DNA from: a virus
Taxonomy: Duplodnaviria; Caudoviricetes
Strand: one strand, 5' to 3'
DNA: 61,176 nucleotides
IMG/VR virus record: IMGVR_UViG_3300028025_001824
Span: 1 to 61,176 of that record
In this document: piece by piece, positions 4,587 to 21,309 of the stretch
Position numbering within the stretch: position 1 is the stretch's first letter
Layout: every line of letters starts with the position of its first letter
The notes under the pieces: generated by a model
Databases searched by the model: none
Seen by the model: the letters and a program-made list of their open reading frames with translations, nothing else
Told to the model about the DNA's origin: nothing
Position numbers and translations under genes: made by a program

Positions 4587-6497
4587 TTACATTCTCCTTA
4601 TAGATAGTGATGCAATTGCTCCCACGATGACCGAGGCAACAACAACTGTTTGTGATTCTTCTCGTTCTGTATCTGACATATCTGCTCCGATACTTCCTAG
4701 CGCCAGAAGTGCCTTAGCAGGGTCAGAGAAAATTGCCCCTACCAATTCGGCTGGGTTTGCTACCAACTCAAGGGCATCAGCAACCTCCGCTGTAATGACG
4801 ATTGGTTCGCCACTTTCATCAACGCGGGTTTCAACTGGAGTCTCTGGAGGTAGGTCGCCGTAATCAATTCCCGCTTCAGCGATTGCTGATGCTGTTACTG
4901 GCTCGCCATCAAATTGAGCAATCAAGGCTTCAGCCACAATTTCTTTTTCGGCTTCCGTCAATTTGCCATCCGCTTGAACTGAATCCACAATTGATGCAAC
5001 TTCATCAGCGGTGACATTGCCATCGGCTAAGATGTCATCCAATATTTCAGAAGGAGATTCAGATGGTGGTTCAGGAGATGGTTCTTCTACTGGCGGTGGT
5101 GGCTCTGCTGGCTCTGGCTCTGGCTCGGGCATTGGTTCTGGCGTTTCAACTGGCTCGGGCTGAGGCTCGGGTTCTGGTTCTGGAGCAGGAGTTGGTTCAG
5201 GCTCGCTCGGCAATGGTTCTGGCTCAGGCTCGGGAATGGGAGTTTCATCGGGAGTCGGGGAAGGCTCGGGAGATGGATTAGGTTCTGGCTCTGGTGCAGG
5301 TGGCTCGGGTTCAGGTGTAGGTTCAGGTTCAACGGCAGGAGGAATAGGCGATGGCAAAGGTGTGGGTTCAGGTGTGGACTGCGAAGGTTCCTGGGGCTGT
5401 TGAGGTTGAGGAGTCGGAGTTGCAACAGGTTCAGGGCTTGGAGTCGGTGAAGGCGATGGTTCCGATGTTGGTTCGGGTTGAGGAGAAGCCGATGGACTTG
5501 GCTCAACTGGAGGAATCGGTTGAGGTGTTACCACCGCTGTCGGAGTATCAGAAGATTGCGTTGGCGAAGGGCTGGGGCTGGGTTCTGGGGCTTGAGGGTC
5601 ATCAGTATAAGCAAGACTGACCGTTAAAAATTTGTAAGTGCCACCGCAAGGGTCACCGAATACATCGTTAAGCGCCATGATGGTTGCGATTGCTTTACCA
5701 AAAAATACTTCGAGAACTTTCTCAACTGAATTAGGTGCATGACATTCACCGATTGAATATCCATTCGGTGTTCCATAACTTGCGAATATGACTGAGGTAA
5801 ATATCTTTCCAATTGGAGCAGAAAGAGTTAGACCGTCTCCTTCATTCGCACTACCATTTACGCTATTAACTTGAGGGATAGGTGTTGGTGATGGAGTTTG
5901 TGATGATTCTGGTGTTGGCGATGGGCTTGGCTCTGGGCTGGATGTTGGGTCTGGACTCGGGGAAAAAGTCGGTTCGGGAGTCGGAGAAGGCGTACTGGTT
6001 TCGGATGGTGAAGGACTTGGAATTGGAGTTACGGTTGGCGAAGGCGAAGGCGAAGGCTCGGGCGTTGGTGCAGGAACAGGAGAACTCACCGAGACCGTAA
6101 AGATTGGTCCGTACCATCCACCCCAAAATCCAGCATCTATGCCTGAAACAGAAATTGTTGCTTGACCCGATACCACGGCGCTGACCGTTGCAACCTCAAT
6201 TGTGTTGCCACTAAAACTTTGACCATTGATTGAGACTGTCCAGTTATCGGGTATCGGCGTACAGGAGCCGATGCAGTTTGCAATGGTGTTATTGACCGAG
6301 ACTGTGACCGTTGAGCCATCTGTAACGGATGTTCTGAAGGTGGCGCTACCACCCCGATAATCGAATTGGATTGAACTGCCCGAGACATTGCCGTTTACCA
6401 CGGATTCCCATGCGTTATCAGCCCCAGCATCATCCATGGGTAAAAGGGCTAGGAGGATGATGATGAGGAAGGCTATCCCTAAGCGCAAATACCTCAT
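4587..6497 (-). CDS. Pro-rich membrane-anchored surface protein with SUEL/galactose-binding lectin-like domain
   Basis: Signal peptide; PS/PT/PE repeats; FASYGTP...CHA...FGDPC.GT.K.L motif; C-terminal TM segment. Confidence 0.75.
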
Positions 6498-7630: not shown

Positions 7631-7798
7631 ATGGATATTGCTGAAGTAGAAACGAAAGACGATTTACAAAAGTGGATTGTGCAGTTTTTTCCTGATGCAA
7701 AGGTCGAACTCTCATCCGAAGGCGTAATCATTAAAACTGGAGCAGATGTCGCAATGGGCGGGTATCTTTATCCACTCAAAGAGAGGTATGAAGATTGA
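7631..7798 (+). CDS. hypothetical protein (55 aa, MDIAEVETK...)
   Basis: Read by hand; TGATG overlap with the deacetylase. Confidence 0.7.
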   Translation: MDIAEVETKDDLQKWIVQFFPDAKVELSSEGVIIKTGADVAMGGYLYPLKERYED

Positions 7799-8703
7799 TG
7801 GAAGATGCAATTATCGTTCATTCGCCTGAATATGCGAACTGGGTCTTTGACCCTACACATCCCACGCAGGGGCGCAGGTTCTTGCTTGGTCGTAACCGTG
7901 TGATTCTGGAAGGTCAAGACCGCCGACTCAACATTGACGAATTTCCTCCAGAGATGCCACACACCGATGATTTATTGCTAGTGCATGACCCGATGTATGT
8001 CCATGATGTAACTATTCGTGGCAAATCAGACGAATGGGATGGCACTCGCCATGACTTAGGAGACCTTGCAAAGTTATTTGTAGGCGGAACTCTTACCGCT
8101 CTTGATTTACTCTTGGAAGAAAAGACCAAGTTAGCAATTCATTTAGCGGGTGCAAAGCATCATGCGATGCGTGACTATTCCAGCGGATTCTGTATCTTCA
8201 ATGACTTTGCTATCGCCGCAACTAAATTAACCCAGATGGGCAAGAGGGTTGCGATATTCGATTGCGATGCTCACCATGGTGACGGAACTGAAGCGCTGAC
8301 TCATGGCAATAAAGACATCCTTACATTCTCGGTTCACCAATGGGGAATTTTCCCAGGAACGGGATTGACCTCTGATTGGGAGCGCCACGCTCTTAACTTT
8401 CCTCTTGTCGCTAATACCGATGATGAAGGTTTGACCGATGCAACTCAATCATTCCTTGATGTCTGTTTCGACTTTGAGCCAGACTTTATCTTCATCGCTT
8501 GCGGTGCAGATGCCTTAGCCGATGACCCACTTTCGGAATTGAAATACACCGTGGGTGGTTATGAACTCGCTATGAAAAGCATCCGCATGGCTTACCCAGA
8601 TACGCCTATCCTGTTTGGAGGCGCTGGAGGCTATCTGCCAGACGACCAGACTCCTGACCTATGGGGCAAGGCAAGTCTCGCGCTGGTGGCTCCTAGGGGC
8701 TGA
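7798..8703 (+). CDS. histone deacetylase family (AcuC-like) Zn-dependent deacetylase
   Basis: G.HHA...SGFCIFND, DCDAHHGDGT, GADALADDPL and GGAGGY motifs. Confidence 0.9.
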   Translation: MEDAIIVHSPEYANWVFDPTHPTQGRRFLLGRNRVILEGQDRRLNIDEFPPEMPHTDDLLLVHDPMYVHDVTIRGKSDEWDGTRHDLGDLAKLFVGGTLTALDLLLEEKTKLAIHLAGAKHHAMRDYSSGFCIFNDFAIAATKLTQMGKRVAIFDCDAHHGDGTEALTHGNKDILTFSVHQWGIFPGTGLTSDWERHALNFPLVANTDDEGLTDATQSFLDVCFDFEPDFIFIACGADALADDPLSELKYTVGGYELAMKSIRMAYPDTPILFGGAGGYLPDDQTPDLWGKASLALVAPRG

Positions 8704-8718
8704 CGGTACGCTTGAGCC

Positions 8719-9276
8719 ATGACAACAATCGTGGCTATCCAGCAAAAGGATAAAGTTATTTTTGGGGCTGACTCACAAACAACTTCTTCCAATGGTCGAA
8801 CATCTAATCACCCGAAAATGGTGAAGATAACCGAGCGCGGAGATTTCCTTATTGCTGGTTCTGGCGAATGTGCGCCTTGCGATATTGCTCAACATATCTG
8901 GATTCCACCTAAGCCAACTGCAAAAGACTTTTTAGATGTCTACCATTTTATGATTTCTAAAGTTGTTCCTTCGCTGAAGGCTTGCTTCAAAGAGCAAGAA
9001 TACAAATGGAACGAATCCGATGATGGTGAAACTAAATTTGCTTTCTTGATTGCTGTAGGTGGTGAGGTATTCGAACTCGCTGAGGATATGAGCATTTCGC
9101 TTGATGGTAAAGGTTTCTATGGTGTCGGCTCTGGCTCCAGTTATGCCATCGGTGCGCTATCTGCTGGGGCTACGATTGAAAAGGCTTTAGAGATTTCAGC
9201 CGATAACGATGCCTACACATCTGCGCCATTCATCTATAAAACACAGAAAAAGAAAGTTGCAACTAAACCTAAATAA
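8719..9276 (+). CDS. Ntn-hydrolase (HslV/proteasome-beta-like) peptidase
   Basis: N-terminal MTTIVAI, GADSQ, conserved Lys, GSG motifs. Confidence 0.8.
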   Translation: MTTIVAIQQKDKVIFGADSQTTSSNGRTSNHPKMVKITERGDFLIAGSGECAPCDIAQHIWIPPKPTAKDFLDVYHFMISKVVPSLKACFKEQEYKWNESDDGETKFAFLIAVGGEVFELAEDMSISLDGKGFYGVGSGSSYAIGALSAGATIEKALEISADNDAYTSAPFIYKTQKKKVATKPK

Positions 9277-11807: not shown

Positions 11808-13406
11808 TTACAAAGTCCACGGATTCGCTTGCGTGAAAGATAACGGCGAAATCGGTTCGTGAACAGTTTTATTCTCGTATAAGGCGAGGAGAATCGCTTC
11901 CGCTCGGTCAGGGGAGTGAACTCCTCGCTTTTTCATGTCCACTTTAGATTCAATCAAGATACGACCCGATGAATCGGATTTGAATGTTGGACCTGCTAAC
12001 TGAGCCAATACAGCGCGGTCTACATCTAGGCGTAATTCTTGCTTTTCATCTTTAGGTTGAAGCATGGCTCTGGTATTCCACCACATCTCGGCGCGTTGAT
12101 TCTTGAACTTGGCTTGGTCTTTAGGTCGCTCTGCCACATTGACCCCGATAACGGTTGCCTTTAATTGGCGCTCTTTGACCCACCTATCCAATAACGAGAC
12201 AACTCCCCAGCCCACGCCAATCGTGTCAATCTTGACTCGTACCGAATCTGGTACGGCTCTGCTCTTATGCTCGGCAACTGCTTTCTCTATCTCACCAATA
12301 ATCACACCTGCGACATCAACGGCGTTCGCGTTAGCCTTTCCAGATGAGCGATGCGTAATCGAGACTTTGTATCCATCTGCCTTTGCGATTACGAATTCAT
12401 CTCCGCCATCGGATGCAATATCCACTCCGAGACGGATAACGCTGGATTCGAGATAATCTTCGTTCTGTGTCGCCTGTTCTGCCCAATGGTAGGGAATGAC
12501 TTTTCCTGTTCCCGTTTGTGGGAATCGGGCATTTACACGGGCTTCAACGAATGGAGAATCTTCTCCGAATTCCCCGATTACATCATCCACCCAACTCTGG
12601 TCTACTAGGTGCGTAGCGACTGCGTGAGCCTCTACATGGGGTGGGCAACTGCGACATTGACCAGTTTCCTCACCCGTGAAGTTAGGGGTGTCATAAGCCC
12701 CGATAGGGATGTTTGTGTAGATAGGCGAATTGCAGATGCGCTCGAACCATGTCTGCTCTTGGTCTGTCGGTGGGTTACCCAATACTAGGAGGCGTGTGTG
12801 TCCACCCGTCATAAGCGCTTCAAGGGCTGAGCCAATCTTGTCCGAGATACCACCCGCTTCATCCACTACTACGAGCAGATGCGGTGCGTGGATACCTTGA
12901 ACTGCCGCTTCGTTATTATCGGCTGGGCGAAAACCATAGGCAACTACGGTGTCATCCATTTTCCATTCAGTCGTGAGGATTTCCCCAGGAAGTTGATTAG
13001 CAATGTGAACTCTGCGGATGTTTGCCCACATGATGTTTCGAACCTGCTTGAATGTTGATGCCGTAGTAATAGCCATGGCGGTTCCAGGCGGGTGAACTGA
13101 AATCCACCATGCAACGGCTCTCGCCGCTAAGTGAGATTTCCCAGGAGCGTGGCAAGCGGGAACTGTAGTTCTCTTATTGTGAATGATGGATTCAAGAATC
13201 TCGCGCTGTTTAGACCAGAGCGTTTCGCCTAATCCTTCTTCGATAAATCCAATTGGGTCATTCTCATATCTAGCCCATGGGTTTTCTATCTCAGCATCAA
13301 GAATTACACCTAACGCATTTTTCTCATCATCGGTAAGTGAGAGATAAATCTTTGTTCTCTCCTCGGGCGTGGCATTGAGAACGAGGTCTACTAGCCGTTC
13401 AGCCAT
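11808..13406 (-). CDS. terL: terminase large subunit
   Basis: ACHAPGKS Walker A variant, VVVDEA Walker B, LGNP, RNase H-like GVDIA...SPDRAEA. Confidence 0.92.
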   Translation of the reverse strand: MAERLVDLVLNATPEERTKIYLSLTDDEKNALGVILDAEIENPWARYENDPIGFIEEGLGETLWSKQREILESIIHNKRTTVPACHAPGKSHLAARAVAWWISVHPPGTAMAITTASTFKQVRNIMWANIRRVHIANQLPGEILTTEWKMDDTVVAYGFRPADNNEAAVQGIHAPHLLVVVDEAGGISDKIGSALEALMTGGHTRLLVLGNPPTDQEQTWFERICNSPIYTNIPIGAYDTPNFTGEETGQCRSCPPHVEAHAVATHLVDQSWVDDVIGEFGEDSPFVEARVNARFPQTGTGKVIPYHWAEQATQNEDYLESSVIRLGVDIASDGGDEFVIAKADGYKVSITHRSSGKANANAVDVAGVIIGEIEKAVAEHKSRAVPDSVRVKIDTIGVGWGVVSLLDRWVKERQLKATVIGVNVAERPKDQAKFKNQRAEMWWNTRAMLQPKDEKQELRLDVDRAVLAQLAGPTFKSDSSGRILIESKVDMKKRGVHSPDRAEAILLALYENKTVHEPISPLSFTQANPWTL

Positions 13407-13408
13407 CT

Positions 13409-13924
13409 CTACCTCTTTCGAATTGCTAAGACTTTCGCTATCTTATCTTCTAAATCGCCCATTTCAATCTGTACCTTAATCGCTTCACCATTGCTTCCGC
13501 CAATTTCAAATCTATCTGTCTTGCCGAACTCCTCTGGTACTTGGCGCTCAAGCCACCACGCCGCCGCTCTCCAATCTCCATCGTTACCGCTCTTGGCGAT
13601 AACTGCAACCTTTTTAGTAATTGCCTCTGCTCTAGCCTGTTCGACTCGCTGTAAAAATTGTAGAAATATAACTTCGGTGGGATTATCTTTTGCGTTTGGC
13701 ACTAGCGCTTGGCGTTCTCTTTCAGCCAATCCGCGACTCATCCAGTTATAGAAAGTCTTTTCCGCTATCCCTGAAGCGGTAACTGCCTTTCGAACAGGTG
13801 TTCCAATTCGAATATAGTCAAGGAGGGTTTGCTCTTTAACTTCTTCAAGGAGCGCAGTAGGTCGCCCAGCCGTCTTTTTGGCAGATGCCTTCGCTGGTTG
13901 CTTCTTCGCTACTGTTGATGCCAT
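13409..13924 (-). CDS. terS: terminase small subunit
   Basis: GRPT..., HTH, DWRAAAWWLER..P.EFG; directly upstream of terL. Confidence 0.8.
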   Translation of the reverse strand: MASTVAKKQPAKASAKKTAGRPTALLEEVKEQTLLDYIRIGTPVRKAVTASGIAEKTFYNWMSRGLAERERQALVPNAKDNPTEVIFLQFLQRVEQARAEAITKKVAVIAKSGNDGDWRAAAWWLERQVPEEFGKTDRFEIGGSNGEAIKVQIEMGDLEDKIAKVLAIRKR

Positions 13925-13928
13925 TGGC

Positions 13929-15119
13929 TTATTCTACCTCGGTTGTACACGCTTCTAATGGTATCTGTAATAACTCGGCTATGTCAGTCCAACCGTATAT
14001 CGTGTTAGCCCATGTATTCAAATCCTCGGTGTGAACTCGCATCGAATGATTGCCCACTCGGATATTTGTTCGACCAATTGGGATATGCCCAGGCTTGGTC
14101 TTTCCTCCTGAAAGAATCTCGGCTACTTCTTCCCTAGAGAATCCCGTTCCCTTGGTACTTGTACTGGTCAGTAACTTATTTAGTTCTTGAGAGTCATAAG
14201 TGGCAAGGTCTGAAGTTCGGTTATCCACGATGAGGATTTTGATTTCCTCTACATCATCTACTTCAATCCAATGCACGGCTATCTTCTCCCAGCCAAGTTG
14301 AACTGCCGCTTGAAGTGTATGGTTTCCCGATACGCAATGCTTCGTAGGGCGATTGACCACAATCGGTCTGTACTGCCCCATGGTTGAGAGTGAATCAATG
14401 ATTGCTCCAATATCACCCTCACGCGGATTTAAGGGGTGAGTAAGAATCTCGTTCACGGATACGGTTTCTACATCTTCAGGCGAACTCTCCGAGCGCTCCT
14501 CAATCCGTTCTGGCTTCTCCATGATTCGCTCTGGAAATCCTAGGCGCTGTTTAATCCCTGCGTTGGCTTTGCTCTTAGTCTTTCCGAACTCCTCGTAAAG
14601 TTGCTCTTTCCACGCATCGTAGGCATCTTGCTCAACTGAGAACTTCCACGCCGCTATCTTTACCTCGGGGTCATCCTTTAGGTTCCCAGAGGTTCCCAAA
14701 GGTTCCTTTTGGTCACCTGATATGAGACGGTCAAGCGTATCTACCTCGGACTGTGTGAATCCCGTGCCATCCAACTCAGGAAGCGCTTGCAAGAGGCTTT
14801 TGAGAAGTGGCTCGTTATATCCAGCAAGGTCAGTTAGGCGGTTATCGGCTAGAACAATCTTCTTGGCTGTGTCATCGTCTACATCAACGAGAACTGCCTT
14901 TATCTTTTTCCAACCAAGTTTCTTAGCCGCTTTAAGAGTGTGATTACCTGCGAGAACAAACTTGGTACTCGCTTGAACCACGATAGGGCGATATTGACCA
15001 TGAGCAGTAAGCGATGATGCAATGGCATCTATGTCTCCTCGTCTCGGATTAGTAGGGTAGGCGGTCAGCGAACTGATACTTACGCTTTGAATGTTTCCCG
15101 TCTGGATATTGGCTTTCAT
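13929..15119 (-). CDS. tandem ParB/Srx-like domain protein
   Basis: Two copies of NPR.GDI.AI..SL...GQYRPIVV...GNHTL.AA..LGW.KI...DNR. Confidence 0.85.
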   Translation of the reverse strand: MKANIQTGNIQSVSISSLTAYPTNPRRGDIDAIASSLTAHGQYRPIVVQASTKFVLAGNHTLKAAKKLGWKKIKAVLVDVDDDTAKKIVLADNRLTDLAGYNEPLLKSLLQALPELDGTGFTQSEVDTLDRLISGDQKEPLGTSGNLKDDPEVKIAAWKFSVEQDAYDAWKEQLYEEFGKTKSKANAGIKQRLGFPERIMEKPERIEERSESSPEDVETVSVNEILTHPLNPREGDIGAIIDSLSTMGQYRPIVVNRPTKHCVSGNHTLQAAVQLGWEKIAVHWIEVDDVEEIKILIVDNRTSDLATYDSQELNKLLTSTSTKGTGFSREEVAEILSGGKTKPGHIPIGRTNIRVGNHSMRVHTEDLNTWANTIYGWTDIAELLQIPLEACTTEVE

Positions 15120-15766
15120 TTAACAAAGAGCCAAGCCTCGAAATTGTAAAACTTCCAGAACATCGTGCCGACTGTGAAGCCAGCGTTCTCAGCCATAATG
15201 TAATTACGCATTGAGGTATTGGTCTGCATGATAGGGCGAAGGTCTCGCTCTTTCTTCATAATCTCGGATGCGCTGAAGTGAAGGCGCTTGAAGTCGTAGT
15301 ACGCCGAATTCATAACACGCTCAAGTTCTCCAGACTCCTCATGCACTTTCTCAGCCCAGATAAAAGCCCCGCCTTCAGCCAACTCATCGTAGACAAGGCT
15401 CAAGATATTAGGGCGGTCTGCCAATGGGAGGAACTGAAGCGTAAAGAGTGAGATGACCAAAGATGGAGTCTTGCCCAGATTCTTAAATGAGCGTAAATCC
15501 TTTTGGACATATTGAACTTCGTCATGGCTCTCAGGTAACAAATTGCCAGAAATATCAATCCCTAGTTTGGCTCCTTGAAATGGAATGGACTCAAGAAGTT
15601 TGCCTGTCGAGCATCCTAAATCAACAATACTAAAATCTTCTTTTGCGTAGAAGGTAGCCAAGTCTCGAACTGAATCATTCAAAAGGTGGTAATTCGGGAT
15701 GGACTTAGCGATGTGGTCATCAAAGTCTGTAATCGTGTCAAATGAAAATGGCTCAGTAGAACTCAT
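15116..15766 (-). CDS. cmoA: CmoA-like carboxy-S-adenosylmethionine synthase
   Basis: FDDHIAKSIPNY, DLGCSTG, FTLQFL, AEK, DFKR..FS.SEI..K and F.NF match the CmoA pattern. Confidence 0.75.
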   Translation of the reverse strand: MSSTEPFSFDTITDFDDHIAKSIPNYHLLNDSVRDLATFYAKEDFSIVDLGCSTGKLLESIPFQGAKLGIDISGNLLPESHDEVQYVQKDLRSFKNLGKTPSLVISLFTLQFLPLADRPNILSLVYDELAEGGAFIWAEKVHEESGELERVMNSAYYDFKRLHFSASEIMKKERDLRPIMQTNTSMRNYIMAENAGFTVGTMFWKFYNFEAWLFVK

Positions 15767-16826
15767 GTAATTTTCTCCCCATTGCTTCAACTACTGGAAT
15801 CGTGATTGTGCGCCCACATCTTTCGTAGCGCTGTGTGTCTGGAACTCTTGACCCGTCTGCATAAAACTCTGTCCAGCCATCGGGTAATCCTTGCAAGCGC
15901 TCGCACTCAAGCGGTGTGAGTTTACGAATCCCAAAACTTTCCTCGTCTCCGATTTGAACTCCGTGTCTATCCTGCGCGGTAATTGTGTACATTGGGTCGC
16001 CATCATCTTTAATCATGCGCCCGTTTGGACTCTTATTGACACGGGCTACATCTAAGACAGGGCGAACAAAAGGCACATTTCCCCCACCCGTACCCATTTG
16101 AGCGAGAAGGGTTGGAACTATTCCATCCTCATAGGTACGCATTGCCTTATCTCTACGGCTCCATGTCTCAACTACATAAGGTCGAGAGTTTCCGCCTTTG
16201 TAGTAATGAGCATCTATGGTTGGAGAAATGTCGGAGAAAAGCCCCGACCTTCCTTTTTGTTGGCGGATGTTCTCCGCATTATCTCCGCTACCTGTTTTTC
16301 CGATAGGGAATACTTTGGGTCTGGCGTGGCTTCTAAGATTTGCGATAAGGAATACCCGCTCTCGGTGCTGTGGGATACCGAAGTTTTGGCTGTCAAGCAA
16401 CTCCCATTGACAGTCATACCCCATTTCATCCAAGACTGCCAAGATGATTCCAAAGGTTCTTCCTTTGTCGTGGTTGAGGAGTCCTTTGACATTCTCAAAT
16501 AAGATGTACGGTATTCCTTTATCCCGAGCGAGGCGAAACATTTCAAAAGCGAGTGTGCCTCTAGTGTCCTCCAAAGAGAACCCTGTTCTGTTTCCCGCAG
16601 TTGAAAAAGTTGCACAAGGAAATCCTCCAACGAGGAGGTCGGCATCTGGAAGGTCTCCAGCGGAAACATCTCTAATGTCTCTGCCATCTGGTTTGTCTCC
16701 GAAGTTTCTTTCATAAATACTCCTTGGTTTGTCTAGCCACTCATTAGCCCATACGCACTCATGCCCAGTATTTTCTAAGCCGAGGCGAAATGCACCAATG
16801 CCAGCAAATAATTCAATGAACTTCAT
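15753..16826 (-). CDS. C5-cytosine DNA methyltransferase family protein (possible carboxymethyltransferase)
   Basis: FAGIG (I), GFPC (IV), ENV (VI), QHRER (VIII), RKLTPLECERLQG (IX); motif X reads CGRT instead of GN. Confidence 0.9.
   Translation of the reverse strand: MKFIELFAGIGAFRLGLENTGHECVWANEWLDKPRSIYERNFGDKPDGRDIRDVSAGDLPDADLLVGGFPCATFSTAGNRTGFSLEDTRGTLAFEMFRLARDKGIPYILFENVKGLLNHDKGRTFGIILAVLDEMGYDCQWELLDSQNFGIPQHRERVFLIANLRSHARPKVFPIGKTGSGDNAENIRQQKGRSGLFSDISPTIDAHYYKGGNSRPYVVETWSRRDKAMRTYEDGIVPTLLAQMGTGGGNVPFVRPVLDVARVNKSPNGRMIKDDGDPMYTITAQDRHGVQIGDEESFGIRKLTPLECERLQGLPDGWTEFYADGSRVPDTQRYERCGRTITIPVVEAMGRKLHEFY
16214..16714 (-). CDS. nested alternative-frame ORF resembling the M.EcoHK31I-type beta polypeptide
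   Basis: 166 codons open inside the MTase; WGM..NG...SLSQILE...KYSLS...IMRR. Confidence 0.5.
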   Translation of the reverse strand: MKETSETNQMAETLEMFPLETFQMPTSSLEDFLVQLFQLRETEQGSLWRTLEAHSLLKCFASLGIKEYRTSYLRMSKDSSTTTKEEPLESSWQSWMKWGMTVNGSCLTAKTSVSHSTESGYSLSQILEATPDPKYSLSEKQVAEIMRRTSANKKEGRGFSPTFLQP

Positions 16827-16857: not shown

Positions 16858-17157
16858 CTAAAGCGCTGGCTTTGCTGGGCGACCTCTACGGCGTACTAGA
16901 TTTCCAGCCTCGTCATAAACGGGCGCTCGGTCAATATCGTTGCGGATGATTTTGTAAATCAACTGCTCTGAAACTCCCATGGCATCTGCAATCTCGCGGT
17001 ATGTAATACGCTGTTTGCGGAGTCGCAAAATCAACTGCTTACGGCGCTTACCTAAATCTGAAATCTGATTCTGATGTTCTCGCATTGCGTTTGTAAGCAT
17101 ACGAACTTCATCTAAACCACGACCATCTAATTGTTCTGCTGTCTGTACATCGCTCAT
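16858..17157 (-). CDS. HTH DNA-binding protein
   Basis: ITYREIADAMGVSEQLIYKII; C-terminal RRGRP. Confidence 0.8.
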   Translation of the reverse strand: MSDVQTAEQLDGRGLDEVRMLTNAMREHQNQISDLGKRRKQLILRLRKQRITYREIADAMGVSEQLIYKIIRNDIDRAPVYDEAGNLVRRRGRPAKPAL

Positions 17158-17357
17158 TATTTCTCTCCTTCGAAGATTTCTTCCCAATTGATGTCGTCAT
17201 TGCTTGGATGGAACATCCTTTTATTTTGTCTAATCGCCTCTAACTCTGCGCTCATTTTTGCTTTGTGATAAGCAAGTGCATAAGCAATAAATATAGGTGC
17301 GAATAATACAAGAGTAGTAAATAATCCTACTACAGTCAATATTAAATTCCAGTTCAT
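17157..17357 (-). CDS. small membrane protein
   Basis: N-terminal TM helix; coupled overlaps. Confidence 0.7.
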   Translation of the reverse strand: MNWNLILTVVGLFTTLVLFAPIFIAYALAYHKAKMSAELEAIRQNKRMFHPSNDDINWEEIFEGEK

Positions 17358-17761
17358 GCTTTCCTCTCTTTCTTTGCCCCTCTTATGTATAGAACTAATG
17401 AATTTCTATCGTTTTGAGGAGGTAGAAATATCAGAGACTTCATAAACTTAGATGAGTCATCTGGCAAAATACCTGCATCAACGATTCCATCAATTGCCGC
17501 TTTTACTGCTGGGTTACACGCCCCTACATCCTGTAGGCGACCCCCTTTTTGGTGAGGTTCGACTGTAACTGAAATCCATTCCATCTCTGGCATCTTTTCT
17601 GATTTAGCCAGAACATAAAATGCCGAGCGCCAAGTCTTGACCAACTCAGCCCGTTCCCATCGGTTGCCAGCGCGTTCCCCGTTGGTTGTCCAAGGGCGTT
17701 GCGCCAACTCAAGGCGATAGACGAGTTGTTCATGTTCATCGGTTCTGCATAGGCAATCCAT
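17354..17761 (-). CDS. rusA: RusA-like Holliday junction resolvase
   Basis: D...PAVKAAIDGIVDAGILPDDS motif. Confidence 0.7.
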   Translation of the reverse strand: MDCLCRTDEHEQLVYRLELAQRPWTTNGERAGNRWERAELVKTWRSAFYVLAKSEKMPEMEWISVTVEPHQKGGRLQDVGACNPAVKAAIDGIVDAGILPDDSSKFMKSLIFLPPQNDRNSLVLYIRGAKKERKA

Positions 17762-17764
17762 GGC

Positions 17765-18151
17765 TTAAAGATAAGGGTCACCTGAACTCCTGTCGAATTC
17801 CCACTTCTCCCCGTCATTGAAGATTTTCCACGCTTTACCGTTATCGTCAATAAAAGGAATTTCCTCAGCGGACTCAACTTTGGTGAGCAAGAATCCTCGT
17901 TCCCTAGCCTTGTCTCGATAAGACTCAACCCAGCCATGACACCCAGTAACTCCCGAGCCACATAACAAAATTAGGTTTGCTGGCAAGTGCAACTGCTCGT
18001 TACGAGAACCGCCCATGCGCCGTGGAACTCTGTGATGAACTGACCAACCGAATCTATCCTCTAGCCCACCACATTTTTCGCATCGGTAATTGGCTCGGTA
18101 AAAAACTTGGAAGCGAACCTCATCACCTACCTTGAGTTTAGGTTTAGCCAT
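17765..18151 (-). CDS. HNH endonuclease
   Basis: CEKC...HHRVPRRMGG...NLILLC...CHGW. Confidence 0.85.
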   Translation of the reverse strand: MAKPKLKVGDEVRFQVFYRANYRCEKCGGLEDRFGWSVHHRVPRRMGGSRNEQLHLPANLILLCGSGVTGCHGWVESYRDKARERGFLLTKVESAEEIPFIDDNGKAWKIFNDGEKWEFDRSSGDPYL

Positions 18152-18250
18152 TGGAGTCTCGCGTTCGCCAAAGATTCTGTGCAACCAGAGCAGATGTGTT
18201 CGCTCGTTTGTAGCGCCGTAATCGAAGCCAATCTGCAAATCGGAATATCC

Positions 18251-18646
18251 TCATAGGTCAGATGCCACCTCTCCGTTACCATCTGCCATATCAGCACTTG
18301 ATTTGCCTTTCGCTAATGTTTCCCGAATCTGAGATAAATAAAAATTCACTTGCTCTGGTGTCGCCGCTTTTGTCCGAGTATCTTCCAACTCCAACATATA
18401 GCGCTGGGTTGCTTCTCGGTCTCTTTCATTCTGTCGTTGTCGAACCCATTCTTTGTTGAAATATACGGGAGCAATAACCTTTTCGTCATTCATGTAATGA
18501 ACCGACACAAAATACTTTGCGAACTCAAAAGTCATATCTGGCAACAGAGCGGAATCCCATGCAAGAATCTTTCCTTCATCGGCTTGAAGCCGACCATCAA
18601 AAAGACAGGCGTAGGCAAAAAGTTGGGCTACCTCAGAACGGTTCAT
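18251..18646 (-). CDS. hypothetical protein (possible helicase loader/inhibitor-like)
   Basis: Directly downstream of the initiator; DGR...AW...H pattern. Confidence 0.55.
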   Translation of the reverse strand: MNRSEVAQLFAYACLFDGRLQADEGKILAWDSALLPDMTFEFAKYFVSVHYMNDEKVIAPVYFNKEWVRQRQNERDREATQRYMLELEDTRTKAATPEQVNFYLSQIRETLAKGKSSADMADGNGEVASDL

Positions 18647-19379
18647 TTTCTATCGCCCTCTCTCTTTCTTCTTCATCAATAAACTTTTGAGCAATATCAA
18701 GCGCTCGCATAACTGAGGTCTCGGTGCGAGTCACAGCACTTCCGCGACTCGGCAGAGGAGTATCAGTCCAGCGCTCTTGATTTAGCCAAGTAGATGCGTG
18801 AGCCGTGAACTCAGGCTGACGATTAGGGTCACTAGCAAATCTCTTTGCTCCCTCAATAATCAACTCAACAGGGGCTTTTTTGCAAGCCTTCATAAATGCT
18901 GTCCTTGCCGCGCCTTTGGCTTCTTTTCTTGGATAGATAGCCCAAAACAAATTGAACTCCGAATCCGAAGGATTCGTGTGTATATCTATATTGGGTATGG
19001 GTATGGGTATGGGATGGGTATGGGGCGGTTGAACTTCGCCCGAAGTTACGCCATCTGTTCGCCGTAACGACCTAGAGCGTTGCATACGGTCTGCCGCTTT
19101 TTTACGCTCAGTTTCGACTTTTTCCTTCGTAAATTGGTACTCATCGTAACCCAAAATCTTGATGTCATCCCCGCATATTTCCCACAAGTTTGCTCCAACT
19201 AATGCCGAAATATGGCGAGAGTTTGATAGTTTTTTAACCGTATTTATCGGAATAATGCCATCGGTAAGGTAGGCATTGGAATAGCAAAGGGCTGTGATGT
19301 AAAGACGGAAGGCTCCGTCACTCAATCCAATAATCTTTGGATGGTTAGGAAACCCATCATCAATCCTTACCCAAGTCAT
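18633..19379 (-). CDS. replication initiator-like protein
   Basis: MTWVRIDDGF..HPK N-terminus; FW..YPRK..K..A...TWLN..RW C-terminal domain. Confidence 0.7.
   Translation of the reverse strand: MTWVRIDDGFPNHPKIIGLSDGAFRLYITALCYSNAYLTDGIIPINTVKKLSNSRHISALVGANLWEICGDDIKILGYDEYQFTKEKVETERKKAADRMQRSRSLRRTDGVTSGEVQPPHTHPIPIPIPNIDIHTNPSDSEFNLFWAIYPRKEAKGAARTAFMKACKKAPVELIIEGAKRFASDPNRQPEFTAHASTWLNQERWTDTPLPSRGSAVTRTETSVMRALDIAQKFIDEEERERAIENEPF
18992..19024. repeat. (GGGTAT)n tandem repeat inside the initiator gene
   Basis: tgggtatgggtatgggtatgggatgggtatggg, encoding a PIPIPIP linker. Confidence 0.8.
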
Positions 19380-19395
19380 TCTCTCTCCTTCAATG

Positions 19396-19770
19396 TTAGA
19401 AGTGATGTCCACAATTCGGACATGATTTCTTTTGCTGGCGTAATTCTATTTTTCGATTGTCTACGAACTCGGGTAACACATAAACCTTGCAACGGTTACG
19501 AGTTTCTTTCAATCTCGCAATTCGCTCGGTTAGATGGAGAACGGACAATACACCCGATGCCGACCCATGGTGAAGTCCAAGGGCATCAGCCAACTCTTTC
19601 CAAGTCGCTCCATGCTTACCGCGATTGGCTAGGTAGGTAAGCGCCGCGATTTGGCGCTTACCCGTAGTTCCATCTGCATCTTGAACTCTCGCTCTTTCCT
19701 CAGATGAATCTGAACCTGACCAGCCCGATGTACCGCTATAGGGAACTTCAGGAAACGCTAACTGTGTCAT
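19396..19770 (-). CDS. winged-HTH DNA-binding protein with C-terminal CxxC
   Basis: GATWKELADALGLHHGSASGVLS. Confidence 0.7.
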   Translation of the reverse strand: MTQLAFPEVPYSGTSGWSGSDSSEERARVQDADGTTGKRQIAALTYLANRGKHGATWKELADALGLHHGSASGVLSVLHLTERIARLKETRNRCKVYVLPEFVDNRKIELRQQKKSCPNCGHHF

Positions 19771-20422
19771 CGCTTGACTCCTTAGTGGTTGAAGTTTCAA
19801 CTACTGGGGAAGTGCCAACACGGTTCTGAGCCTCCTTGAATGAAATTCGTAAAGTCTCAAGGATTGATGGCTCAATCGCATCTTTATACTTGGTGATGTA
19901 AGCGCCCAACTTTGCAAGTGTTTCCAAGTCAGAAGATTCAGAGATTGCCTTGGCGAGCGCCTTGGTATCAACTACGACCTTTTCTGAACGCTCGTAACTT
20001 TGACTATCTGGGTCTGGCTCGTCAGTTGGTAGCGATAGTGTTTGTAGGAGCGCTGTTCGAAATGCAACAGACATCGCCTTAGCGGTTGCCTTGTCTCCTG
20101 AGTCCATTGCCTCACCGACTACCGTGGCTTTAATTGCATCTCCACCAGCGCCGATAAATGTGTAGGTCACTTTAACTTTTACATGACCCATAACTGTGCG
20201 GTTCTTGCCGATTTCAACTGAGGCATATTCATAATCCTCAACTGAGGGAACCACGATTACGCCATGCTTTTGAAGTGCAGGTGATACTGCATTTACAACG
20301 GCATCAATGCCACGGAAGTTAAATCCTTGGGATGCGTTGCGGTCATTCTTCTTAACTGCTCCAACTTCCTTCATAACTTCATTTAGGGCTTGAGCAATTG
20401 ATAGTGTTTTGGTTTCTGACAT
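19748..20422 (-). CDS. erf: ERF family single-strand annealing protein
   Basis: FNFRGIDAV...PAL.KHG...GEAMDSGDKA..KAMS.A.R. Confidence 0.85.
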   Translation of the reverse strand: MSETKTLSIAQALNEVMKEVGAVKKNDRNASQGFNFRGIDAVVNAVSPALQKHGVIVVPSVEDYEYASVEIGKNRTVMGHVKVKVTYTFIGAGGDAIKATVVGEAMDSGDKATAKAMSVAFRTALLQTLSLPTDEPDPDSQSYERSEKVVVDTKALAKAISESSDLETLAKLGAYITKYKDAIEPSILETLRISFKEAQNRVGTSPVVETSTTKESSDDTVSVS

Positions 20423-20434
20423 TTCCTTCTCTCT

Positions 20435-20977
20435 CTACTCGGTTACGAACTTGACTGAGGTTTCGGCTGGAACAACCTTGACCTCGGGGATAATTTCGCC
20501 TTGGGTTGAAATTACCACACCTTCTTCGGTAATCAAAGCCTTTAACGCAGATTTGTCTACATCAGTTTTGATTCGCAGAAGTGAAGGGTCATTAACCTTC
20601 GCCCACTCAATGAATTTAGATTCATCATTGAACTCAATGCGTGGCTGACCAGCCGTGGTCTTGAGTGAGCCATGGGGCAAGGTTACCGTTTTGCGACCCT
20701 CAGAGCGCTGTAGGAGCGCGTAAGGGGTAAGGACTGCCTCAAAGTACAGGGCATCTCGGTCTAGGGCTGTATTGACCGTTGAAAGCCATTCCGTGATGCG
20801 TATGACCTCGGCATCGAAGATGGCTTTGTTCTCGGCTTGCTTACGCCGAATGACTGCTAATTTGCGAATTGCCCAATCAGCCTTTTGGTCTGTATCAACT
20901 ACGAAACCCTCATTTTCCGCTGAGATTGAAGATACAGCGGGATTGTCGAACTCATTGATTTCTGGTTGTGTTGTCAT
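20435..20977 (-). CDS. Mu Gam-like host-nuclease inhibitor
   Basis: ADWAIRKL coiled coil, KTVTLPHG, DKSALK; GAGGAG RBS. Confidence 0.75.
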   Translation of the reverse strand: MTTQPEINEFDNPAVSSISAENEGFVVDTDQKADWAIRKLAVIRRKQAENKAIFDAEVIRITEWLSTVNTALDRDALYFEAVLTPYALLQRSEGRKTVTLPHGSLKTTAGQPRIEFNDESKFIEWAKVNDPSLLRIKTDVDKSALKALITEEGVVISTQGEIIPEVKVVPAETSVKFVTE

Positions 20978-20997
20978 ATTGCTCCTCTCATAGCGAG

Positions 20998-21027
20998 AGG
21001 TTACACACCCCCAGTTGGGTATGTCAA
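20998..21027 (-). promoter_or_regulatory. promoter of the recombination/replication operon, with inverted box in the spacer
   Basis: TTGACA-18 nt (tacccaactgggggtgtg)-TAACCT. Confidence 0.7.
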
Positions 21028-21030
21028 ATC

Positions 21031-21309
21031 CTACAAGCCGATGATTTGCCCAACATATACGGAGGCACCGACAACTGTGGCGATGATGAGAGCGCCAACA
21101 GTACGAACCACCCACTCGGAGCGAGATTCCATCTTTTCAACTCGGTCAAGGATTGATTCCATTGCCTGTTGAAAACGAGCAGAATCAGATGAGTAGACAT
21201 CACGGCGAACATAAGTCTCGCCAATGTTGATATTGATTTGCTTGACTTCTGTGGTCAAGTCATCAAGCCTACGCATGATTTCCCCGAGGGTTGGTTCGTG
21301 TTCTGCCAT
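21031..21309 (-). CDS. lysis-cassette membrane protein
   Basis: Coiled coil plus C-terminal TM helix, after the endolysin. Confidence 0.75.
   Translation of the reverse strand: MAEHEPTLGEIMRRLDDLTTEVKQININIGETYVRRDVYSSDSARFQQAMESILDRVEKMESRSEWVVRTVGALIIATVVGASVYVGQIIGL

Follow-up and report, generated by a model that had tools for sequence, protein, structure and literature searches.

The question raised by the virus record IMGVR_UViG_3300028025_001824 (Caudoviricetes) is whether two overlapping phage genes, one encoding a homologue of the DNA cytosine-C5 methyltransferases (C5-MTases) and the other a CmoA-like protein, serve to transfer a carboxymethyl group from carboxy-S-adenosylmethionine (Cx-SAM) to cytosines of the phage DNA. 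The analysed stretch, hereafter referred to as the window, corresponds to the complete IMG/VR record (61,176 bp; CheckV completeness 100%). Based on homology, residue correspondence, conservation and synteny, a Cx-SAM-dependent cytosine carboxymethylation by this gene pair appears likely, and we would assign it a probability of roughly 80%. Since the chemistry was published in 2025 for a cyanophage, the pair presumably adds a somewhat deviating example to a kind of system that is already known.

Natural DNA carboxymethylation was described by Yang et al. (Nat Commun 2025, PMC12783734) in Synechococcus phage S-B43, which is a natural phage example of the sort that the earlier note on the window had mentioned. 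In that study SpCmoA was assayed as a Cx-SAM synthase with a kcat of 2.33 per second, and SpCmoX (PDB 8YF3) was found to make 5-carboxymethylcytosine (5cxmC) at GC, accepting only Cx-SAM and not S-adenosylmethionine (SAM) as cofactor. Arg350 of SpCmoX replaces Asn304 of M.HhaI and contacts the carboxymethyl group, and the R350N variant is inactive. The same authors reported that 5cxmC blocks HhaI and that SpCmoY ligates glycine to 5cxmC; native S-B43 DNA contains the glycine amide and no 5cxmC (PMC12783734). The engineered precedent named in the earlier note, the M.MpeI variant N374K, is in print as well: according to the available part of the source (PMC13288465), M.MpeI acquires carboxymethyltransferase activity by N374K, and M.CviPI does so by mutations at the residues that correspond structurally.

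The features of the window on which the argument is based are the following:

15753 to 16826, minus strand: predicted CmoX-like DNA cytosine-C5 (carboxy)methyltransferase, 357 aa (PF00145, 2.9e-70; TIGR00675)
16611 to 16616, minus strand: codons of the catalytic Cys71 and of Ala72 in motif IV (GFPCA), Ala72 standing at the position of M.HhaI Gln82
15810 to 15812, minus strand: codon CGC of Arg339 in motif X, at the position of M.HhaI Asn304 and SpCmoX Arg350
15753 to 15766, minus strand: 14-nt overlap between the end of the C5-MTase gene and the beginning of the CmoA gene; GGGGAG lies upstream
15116 to 15766, minus strand: phage-type CmoA, predicted Cx-SAM synthase, 216 aa from ATG (TIGR00740, phrog_4752 and PDB matches)
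15236 to 15238, minus strand: codon of CmoA Arg177, candidate carboxylate-binding residue (alignment with E. coli CmoA and SpCmoA)

The C5-MTase homologue matches TIGR00675 with an E-value of 1.3e-75 (255 bits), and its catalytic motifs FxGxG, PC (Cys71), ENV (Glu111) and RxR (Arg155, Arg157) are intact and invariant in a 37-row alignment. In an AlphaFold2 (AF2) model the catalytic core mostly exceeds a predicted local distance difference test score (pLDDT) of 90, and residues 177-300, the target recognition domain (TRD), remain below 50. A Foldseek search with this model placed C5-MTases on top, with HhaI first and 8yf3 at rank 19. Motif X of the window enzyme, YERCGRTITIPV, contains Arg339. 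HMMER aligned YERCGRTITIPV to YKQFGNSVVINV of M.HhaI, thereby placing R339 at N304, a profile alignment agrees, and MAFFT placed R339 on R350 of SpCmoX (ERVGR). The two observations from which the earlier note had started, the overlap of the C5-MTase with the CmoA-like gene and an Arg codon at 15810-15812 instead of the motif-X Asn, were both confirmed, the overlap comprising 14 nt (15753-15766) and the codon CGC encoding Arg339. The alignment to M.HhaI that the note had suggested as a check gave the correspondence it predicted.

A second change, which the earlier note did not contain, is located in motif IV, where the window enzyme reads GFPCATFS and M.HhaI reads GFPCQAFS, so that Ala72 occupies the position of Gln82. 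As far as the available part of the source states (PMC3526304), Gln82 and Asn304 of M.HhaI both flank the transferred group, Gln82, Tyr254 and Asn304 being the three residues modelled beside it, and the Q82A variant shows an about 16-fold lower methylation and a raised transfer of a larger group. The Ala at the Gln82 position appears to matter; at the M.HhaI positions Gln82 and Asn304 the window enzyme has Ala and Arg by nature. With the published CmoX enzymes it shares the C5-MTase fold and motifs, the Arg at the R350 position and the CmoA neighbour.

Homologues of the window C5-MTase number in the thousands at E <= 1e-20, and GFPCATFS together with the motif-X G-R is kept in all 120 listed homologues (67-97% identity). 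The co-variation of the two positions was scored in 150 representatives clustered at 50% identity. Gln is combined with Asn in 132 of them and Ala with Arg in seven full-length sequences, and the combination Gln plus Arg does not occur in this sample. Three further representatives are fragments (P0153 with Arg and without N-terminus; P0183 with Ala and without C-terminus; P0123, 233 aa, the end of which aligns unreliably), and eight show other combinations (Pro+Asn and Gln+Asp in two each; Gln+Gly, Gln+Met, Gln+Glu and Pro+Leu in one each). The Arg-type sequences furthermore have Glu-Arg before the Gly in common (ER.GR), whereas the Asn-type sequences have Lys there. The cultured phages S-CRM01 and PaBG, in which CmoA adjoins the MTase, show SPPC...ER[IL]GR.

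The CmoA gene overlaps the 3' end of the MTase gene in 79 of 80 related IMG/VR loci, beginning some 11 nt ahead of the point where the MTase match ends, and in the eightieth the contig ends 15 nt after the MTase; since the loci within each synteny set are related to each other, such counts do not represent independent events, a reservation to be set against the proposed reading. Among the other neighbours in the 80 loci, helix-turn-helix (HTH) proteins were detected in 72, ParB in 62 and the large terminase subunit (TerL) in 38, the counts for ParB and TerL being set mainly by contig ends because nearly all non-matching loci end at or just after CmoA. As a control, the 20 loci around the Asn-type relative P0127 were inspected, and none of them has a CmoA within 4 kb. 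To judge from these comparisons, the motif-X Arg and the CmoA neighbourhood are more than chance, and the constancy of GFPCATFS and G-R in the 120 homologues points to purifying selection.

A quick IQ-TREE search was run on 224 catalytic-domain columns, excluding the TRD as well as columns 72, 335, 336 and 339, which carry the traits themselves. Of the 150 representatives, 44 full-length sequences were included (7 Arg-type and 37 Asn-type, the window's nearest), and fragments as well as fused or long forms were left out. All 14 Arg-type rows of the tree, among them SpCmoX, S-CRM01 and PaBG, which form a group on a long branch, lie on one side of a single branch that separates them from the 37 Asn-type rows, with a support of 92 in the Shimodaira-Hasegawa-like approximate likelihood ratio test (SH-aLRT). 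An independent emergence of the Arg in an HhaI-like methylase was set aside as not supported, since the tree, a quick search whose Asn-type rows are those nearest to the window, requires one change only; a single origin is compatible with it.

The CmoA-like protein has its best NCBIfam match in TIGR00740 CmoA (1.3e-25, 90.5 bits) and matches phrog_4752 in PHROG (1.6e-59). Its PDB matches, with E-values from 4.6e-18 to 4.3e-15, include H. influenzae YecO (1im8, 4.6e-18) and E. coli CmoA (4iwn/4gek). The residues that hold the cofactor in E. coli CmoA are listed in the available part of Byrne et al. (PMC3663124); eight of them, Y39, D62, G64, S66, D89, D117, F137 and E164, are all identical in the window protein, and N90, N132 and Arg199 differ. 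The same three differ in SpCmoA, whose group comprises the closest relatives of the window CmoA in the phage collection (34-35% identity). Read from a TTG start the CmoA open reading frame (ORF) would extend over 15116 to 15790 on the minus strand and overlap the MTase by 38 nt. The ATG at 15764-15766 is the likelier start because it is preceded at 8 nt by the Shine-Dalgarno sequence GGGGAG and yields the 216-aa form that is found in the protein collection (P0271). The overlap of the two genes together with GGGGAG suggests translational coupling. The proposals that the phage makes its own Cx-SAM by means of the CmoA homologue and that a C5-MTase with a basic motif-X residue transfers the carboxymethyl group to cytosine, both put forward in the earlier note, are thus supported by homology and context, the former matching SpCmoA and the latter SpCmoX (PMC12783734).

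Several properties of the two proteins weigh against this reading. Motif IV of the window enzyme is GFPC(A) and not the SPPC that Yang et al. applied, together with Arg350, as a filter in their search (PMC12783734), the catalytic Cys being kept and the Ser-Pro not. The identity to SpCmoX amounts to 29% (MAFFT), and among the solved structures matched by sequence 8yf3 reaches 1.1e-10 as compared to 1.6e-46 for M.HhaI. The score of the CmoA homologue lies below the curated TIGR00740 cut-off of 193.3 bits; the assayed SpCmoA also remains below it, with 115.6 bits. The cut-off does not cover phage CmoAs, and the sub-threshold score of the window protein therefore says little. Furthermore, the column of the carboxylate-binding Arg199 of E. 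coli CmoA is occupied by Glu in the window protein. Glu is likewise found in SpCmoA and in five of seven other phage or metagenome CmoAs, the remaining two having Ser (Staphylococcus phage SPbeta-like) and Ala (L002). In terms of these alignments, the published rule that Arg199 is the hallmark of CmoA fails by position for phage CmoAs. All aligned phage and metagenome CmoAs have an Arg four residues after the Arg199 column, which is Arg177 in the window (site 15236-15250, minus strand) and is invariant in 120 of 120 homologues. By its conservation Arg177, which lies one helical turn beyond the Arg199 column, is a candidate for the relocated carboxylate-binding Arg.

In the proposed mechanism CmoA would turn host SAM and prephenate into Cx-SAM. 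The C5-MTase homologue would flip the target cytosine, Cys71 would attack C6 and the carboxymethyl group of Cx-SAM would be moved to C5. Arg339 presumably binds the carboxylate, and the change from Gln to Ala at residue 72 would make room for the larger group and disfavour methyl transfer. The product would be 5cxmC in the phage DNA, which is predicted to stay un-ligated, and its likely role is the protection from host restriction at unpurged sites, GCGC-containing sites being the best candidates. We infer the Cx-SAM synthesis, the carboxymethyl transfer, the target site and the anti-restriction role in the window phage from its sequence and that of its relatives.

With respect to the end product, no match to an Asn-synthase (PF00733, CmoY type) was detected in the complete 61,176-bp record, the control having matched in 11 of 14 genomes, and ATP-grasp_4 and AMP-binding ligases also gave no match in the complete genome. 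As no ligase was thus detected, un-ligated 5cxmC is predicted as the final base. It seems unlikely that 5cxmC is the first step only and that an enzyme of the host, or one of the phage that has escaped recognition, processes it further, to an amide or another derivative, as CmoY does in S-B43. Such a conversion would agree with the glycine amide as the only form in native S-B43 DNA and with the several ligase clusters reported to have unknown amine substrates (PMC12783734). Candidates might be sought among several ORFs without family match at 1-11.4 kb of the window or in the homologue of the histone deacetylase (HDAC)-type amidohydrolases at 7795-8703. However, besides the lack of all three ligase types, the conserved operon consists of HTH, MTase, CmoA and ParB only. 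Moreover, Yang et al. identified 5,615 candidate CmoX with SPPC and Arg in IMG/VR v4 and other sources and found CmoA in the neighbourhood of 4,257, a ligase in that of 2,251 and ParBc in that of 1,660, so that many CmoX contigs are without ligase (PMC12783734).

Another alternative, and a very unlikely one, would be an ordinary SAM-dependent methylase producing 5-methylcytosine (5mC), with CmoA serving the host tRNA modification cmo5U, another Cx-SAM reaction or the draining of SAM against SAM-dependent defences. The closeness of the catalytic domain to M.HhaI (1.6e-46) would fit, as would the occurrence of some phage CmoAs without adjacent C5-MTase (Erwinia phage Y3, Alcaligenes phage Afa-NA1), and Yang et al. 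mention in their Discussion that CmoA might deplete SAM (PMC12783734). Yet the changes from Asn to Arg and from Gln to Ala affect residues flanking the transferred group, are invariant and are strictly linked to CmoA; SpCmoX, which has this Arg as well, is unable to use SAM (PMC12783734), and Q82A cuts the methylation by M.HhaI, as given in the available part of PMC3526304. The overlap of the MTase and CmoA genes, with the coupling it suggests, also argues for a common function. CmoB was not found in the genome, which therefore encodes no tRNA use, and a tRNA-modification role of CmoA was rejected for this reason. A second C5-MTase was not found in the complete genome either.

It is extremely unlikely that the MTase homologue is dead or repurposed, for instance for binding DNA jointly with the ParB-like protein in packaging, and that no base is modified, as its location by the ParB-like and terminase genes and the delicate pocket indicated by the inactive SpCmoX R350N (PMC12783734) are opposed by catalytic motifs that are all intact and invariant in the 37-row alignment and by the co-inheritance of a dedicated cofactor synthase.

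Returning to the carboxymethylation of cytosines by the gene pair, the site content of the genome was analysed with regard to the target. GATC, AGCT, GGCC, CCGG and ACGT are absent from the genome (1-61176), where a Markov model expects 105-261 of each; dinucleotide shuffles expect 244 +/- 15 GATC and 176 +/- 12 GGCC. Of the six-base palindromes 43 of 64 are absent, and their total amounts to 290 as compared to 978 expected from base composition. Among non-palindromic words CACTG, CGACG and GACGC do not occur at all, and a strong depletion is seen for GCAGC, GGGAC and CCAGG. GCGC occurs 287 times, with 284 expected; the remaining four-base palindromes are found at 0.6-0.9 of expectation and only GCGC and ATAT at 1.0. 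In a comparison set of 46 related IMG/VR loci, each 7 kb or longer (among L006-L084), the palindrome purge is common to the loci and GCGC is present in all 46. Lineage-specific extras were also observed, TGCA, CGCG, TTAA, TCGA or ATAT being lost in some loci and GATC regained in a few (L046, L077, L030). Such shifting purge lists look like a tracking of different host restriction repertoires.

An enzyme acting on the GC dinucleotide would make the purge of AGCT and GGCC needless, and the target is therefore probably longer than GC. GCGC can be named as a tentative candidate target of the window MTase, one that is rather to be doubted than relied on. CATG, GTAC, CTAG, AATT, TATA and ATAT are also kept in the 46 loci (ATAT is absent only from L020), GGCGCC, TGCGCA and GCGCGC are absent in spite of containing GCGC, and the avoidance of AGCT alone inflates AGCG, all of which weakens GCGC. 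The target is also not readable from the TRD, given the pLDDT below 50 of residues 177-300 and a weak HMMER alignment to the TRD of M.HhaI. Relatives with MTase lengths of 320, 363 and 395 aa were compared as well, and their palindrome spectra do not discriminate the target, GCGC being present in all 46 loci.

It would be a bolder proposal, and one that we consider improbable at present, that the window enzyme belongs to a separate HhaI-like 'GFPCA / ER.GR' branch of carboxymethyltransferases, which produces terminal 5cxmC at a four-base GCGC-containing site in an abundant freshwater phage lineage. If true, terminal 5cxmC would be seen for the first time in a natural genome, along with a natural carboxymethyltransferase whose specificity exceeds GC in length, and the modification would cover the one G/C palindrome left unpurged in an almost palindrome-free genome.

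In comparison to S-B43, both phages possess a CmoA beside a C5-MTase with the motif-X Arg inside ER.GR, the phage-type CmoA signature is found in both, and one branch of the tree separates the Arg-type enzymes from the Asn-type rows. The ParB-domain neighbour in the window is as published for 1,660 CmoX contigs. The two systems differ in motif IV (GFPCA in the window, SPPCS in SpCmoX; 29% identity), and the catalytic core of the window enzyme is much closer to M.HhaI. In the window the MTase precedes and overlaps CmoA and a CmoY ligase is missing, the host is probably not a cyanobacterium, and plain GC is an unlikely target, AGCT and GGCC being purged. The window pair thus probably works like CmoA-CmoX, lacking SPPC and a ligase and probably having another specificity.

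The engineered variants M.MpeI N374K and M.CviPI resemble the window enzyme in having the motif-X Asn replaced by a basic residue, which in the engineered enzymes brings about the use of Cx-SAM, and differ from it in being laboratory mutants with Lys and a CpG or GpC specificity, as far as described in the available part of PMC13288465. The window enzyme is natural, has Arg and the second change from Gln to Ala, and is accompanied by a predicted cofactor synthase of its own. Among the solved structures M.HhaI comes nearest both by sequence (1.6e-46) and by Foldseek; it uses SAM to form 5mC at GCGC, and the TRD of the window enzyme aligns weakly to it. In the engineered M.HhaI Q82A/Y254S/N304A, which is treated in the available part of PMC3526304, two of the three residues engineered for the transfer of bigger groups are those changed in the window enzyme; the engineered enzyme has Ala at 304 and the window enzyme Arg. 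The E. coli CmoA/CmoB pathway of tRNA cmo5U formation shares the CmoA fold and, going by the residues given in the available part of PMC3663124, most cofactor-binding residues with the window CmoA. It differs in that the window has no CmoB, no Arg199 at the aligned position and a score below the TIGR00740 cut-off, and in that the predicted acceptor in the window phage is DNA and not tRNA.

The window enzyme and its relatives would widen the sequence definition of natural carboxymethyltransferases, since a filter for SPPC plus Arg would miss this large clade, and an Ala or Ser at Gln82 combined with ER.GR might predict such enzymes better. 5cxmC-based sequencing, which according to the available part of PMC13288465 now relies on engineered CpG/GpC enzymes, would profit from natural enzymes of new specificity. 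In the ligase-free lineage, furthermore, native DNA might serve to demonstrate terminal 5cxmC, S-B43 DNA having contained the glycine amide only, and the extreme site avoidance together with a single modification enzyme would provide a natural experiment on avoiding as compared to masking restriction sites.

CmoA genes were also found in other settings in phages. In Staphylococcus phage SPbeta-like (KT429160.1; L003:3959-5658) cmoA is located directly before a C5-MTase annotated as 'hhaIM', motif X of which contains Gly-Gly (VVGGVINQ), neither Asn nor Arg, with the motif IV Gln kept; this may be a different way to make room for the carboxymethyl group. Erwinia phage Y3 (KY984068.1; L089) and Alcaligenes phage Afa-NA1 (PV550095.1; L088) encode a CmoA without a C5-MTase within 5 kb, and in Y3 it adjoins an asparagine synthase and an oxygenase. 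Altogether 48 Erwinia phage records show a CmoA match. The carboxymethyl acceptor in Y3 and Afa-NA1 may be something other than DNA cytosine as the substrate of a C5-MTase. In an unverified 'Bacteriophage sp.' contig (MT835562.1; L002) CmoA is bordered by NAD-binding-like proteins and multi-pass membrane proteins, and a DNA methyltransferase is missing from the neighbourhood, a setting that probably does not relate to DNA modification.

The module of the window is accompanied by the following genes:

16858 to 17187, minus strand: HTH protein, 109 aa, directly upstream of the MTase (HTH_23, 1.4e-08; phrog_6223)
13929 to 15119, minus strand: 396-aa protein with two ParB_N domains (PF02195, 1.2e-13, 2 stretches; phrog_8071, 1.6e-149)
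13409 to 13924, minus strand: small terminase subunit, directly downstream of the module (phrog_4102, 2.8e-40, given for the terminase pair)
11808 to 13406, minus strand: TerL, 55% identical to Arthrobacter phage terminases

The gene of the ParB protein begins within the last 4 nt of the CmoA gene (ATGA), and the three overlapping genes for MTase, CmoA and the ParB protein presumably form one operon between the replication/recombination and the terminase genes. Upstream of the module, at 17354-21115 on the minus strand, a RusA-like resolvase, an HNH endonuclease, a replication initiator, an Erf-like annealing protein and a Mu Gam-like protein are encoded. An integrase was not seen among the window ORFs scanned.

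A CmoA with 98% identity (P0278) is labelled as originating from a Micrococcales metagenome-assembled genome, and the window stretch occurs in freshwater or lake metagenome runs of 12 studies; the 22 listed public runs containing it are assembled Logan contigs, a form of data that does not record modified bases. The species-representative bacterial genomes contain nine relatives, the best being 46% identical, and no close relative was found among them. Two full-length bacterial matches that were examined (L111, L117) are Asn-type and without CmoA. A freshwater actinobacterium is a reasonable guess for the host, to which the similarity of TerL to Arthrobacter phage terminases also points.

Apart from the module, a 636-aa protein is encoded at 4587-6497 on the minus strand, which has no PHROG match and a weak SUEL-lectin domain match below the Pfam cut-off. 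The HDAC-family protein at 7795-8703 (PF00850, 9.9e-54) is directly followed by a homologue of the HslV-family peptidases (phrog_1040), and this pair, which spans 7795-9276 on the plus strand, is unusual in phage.

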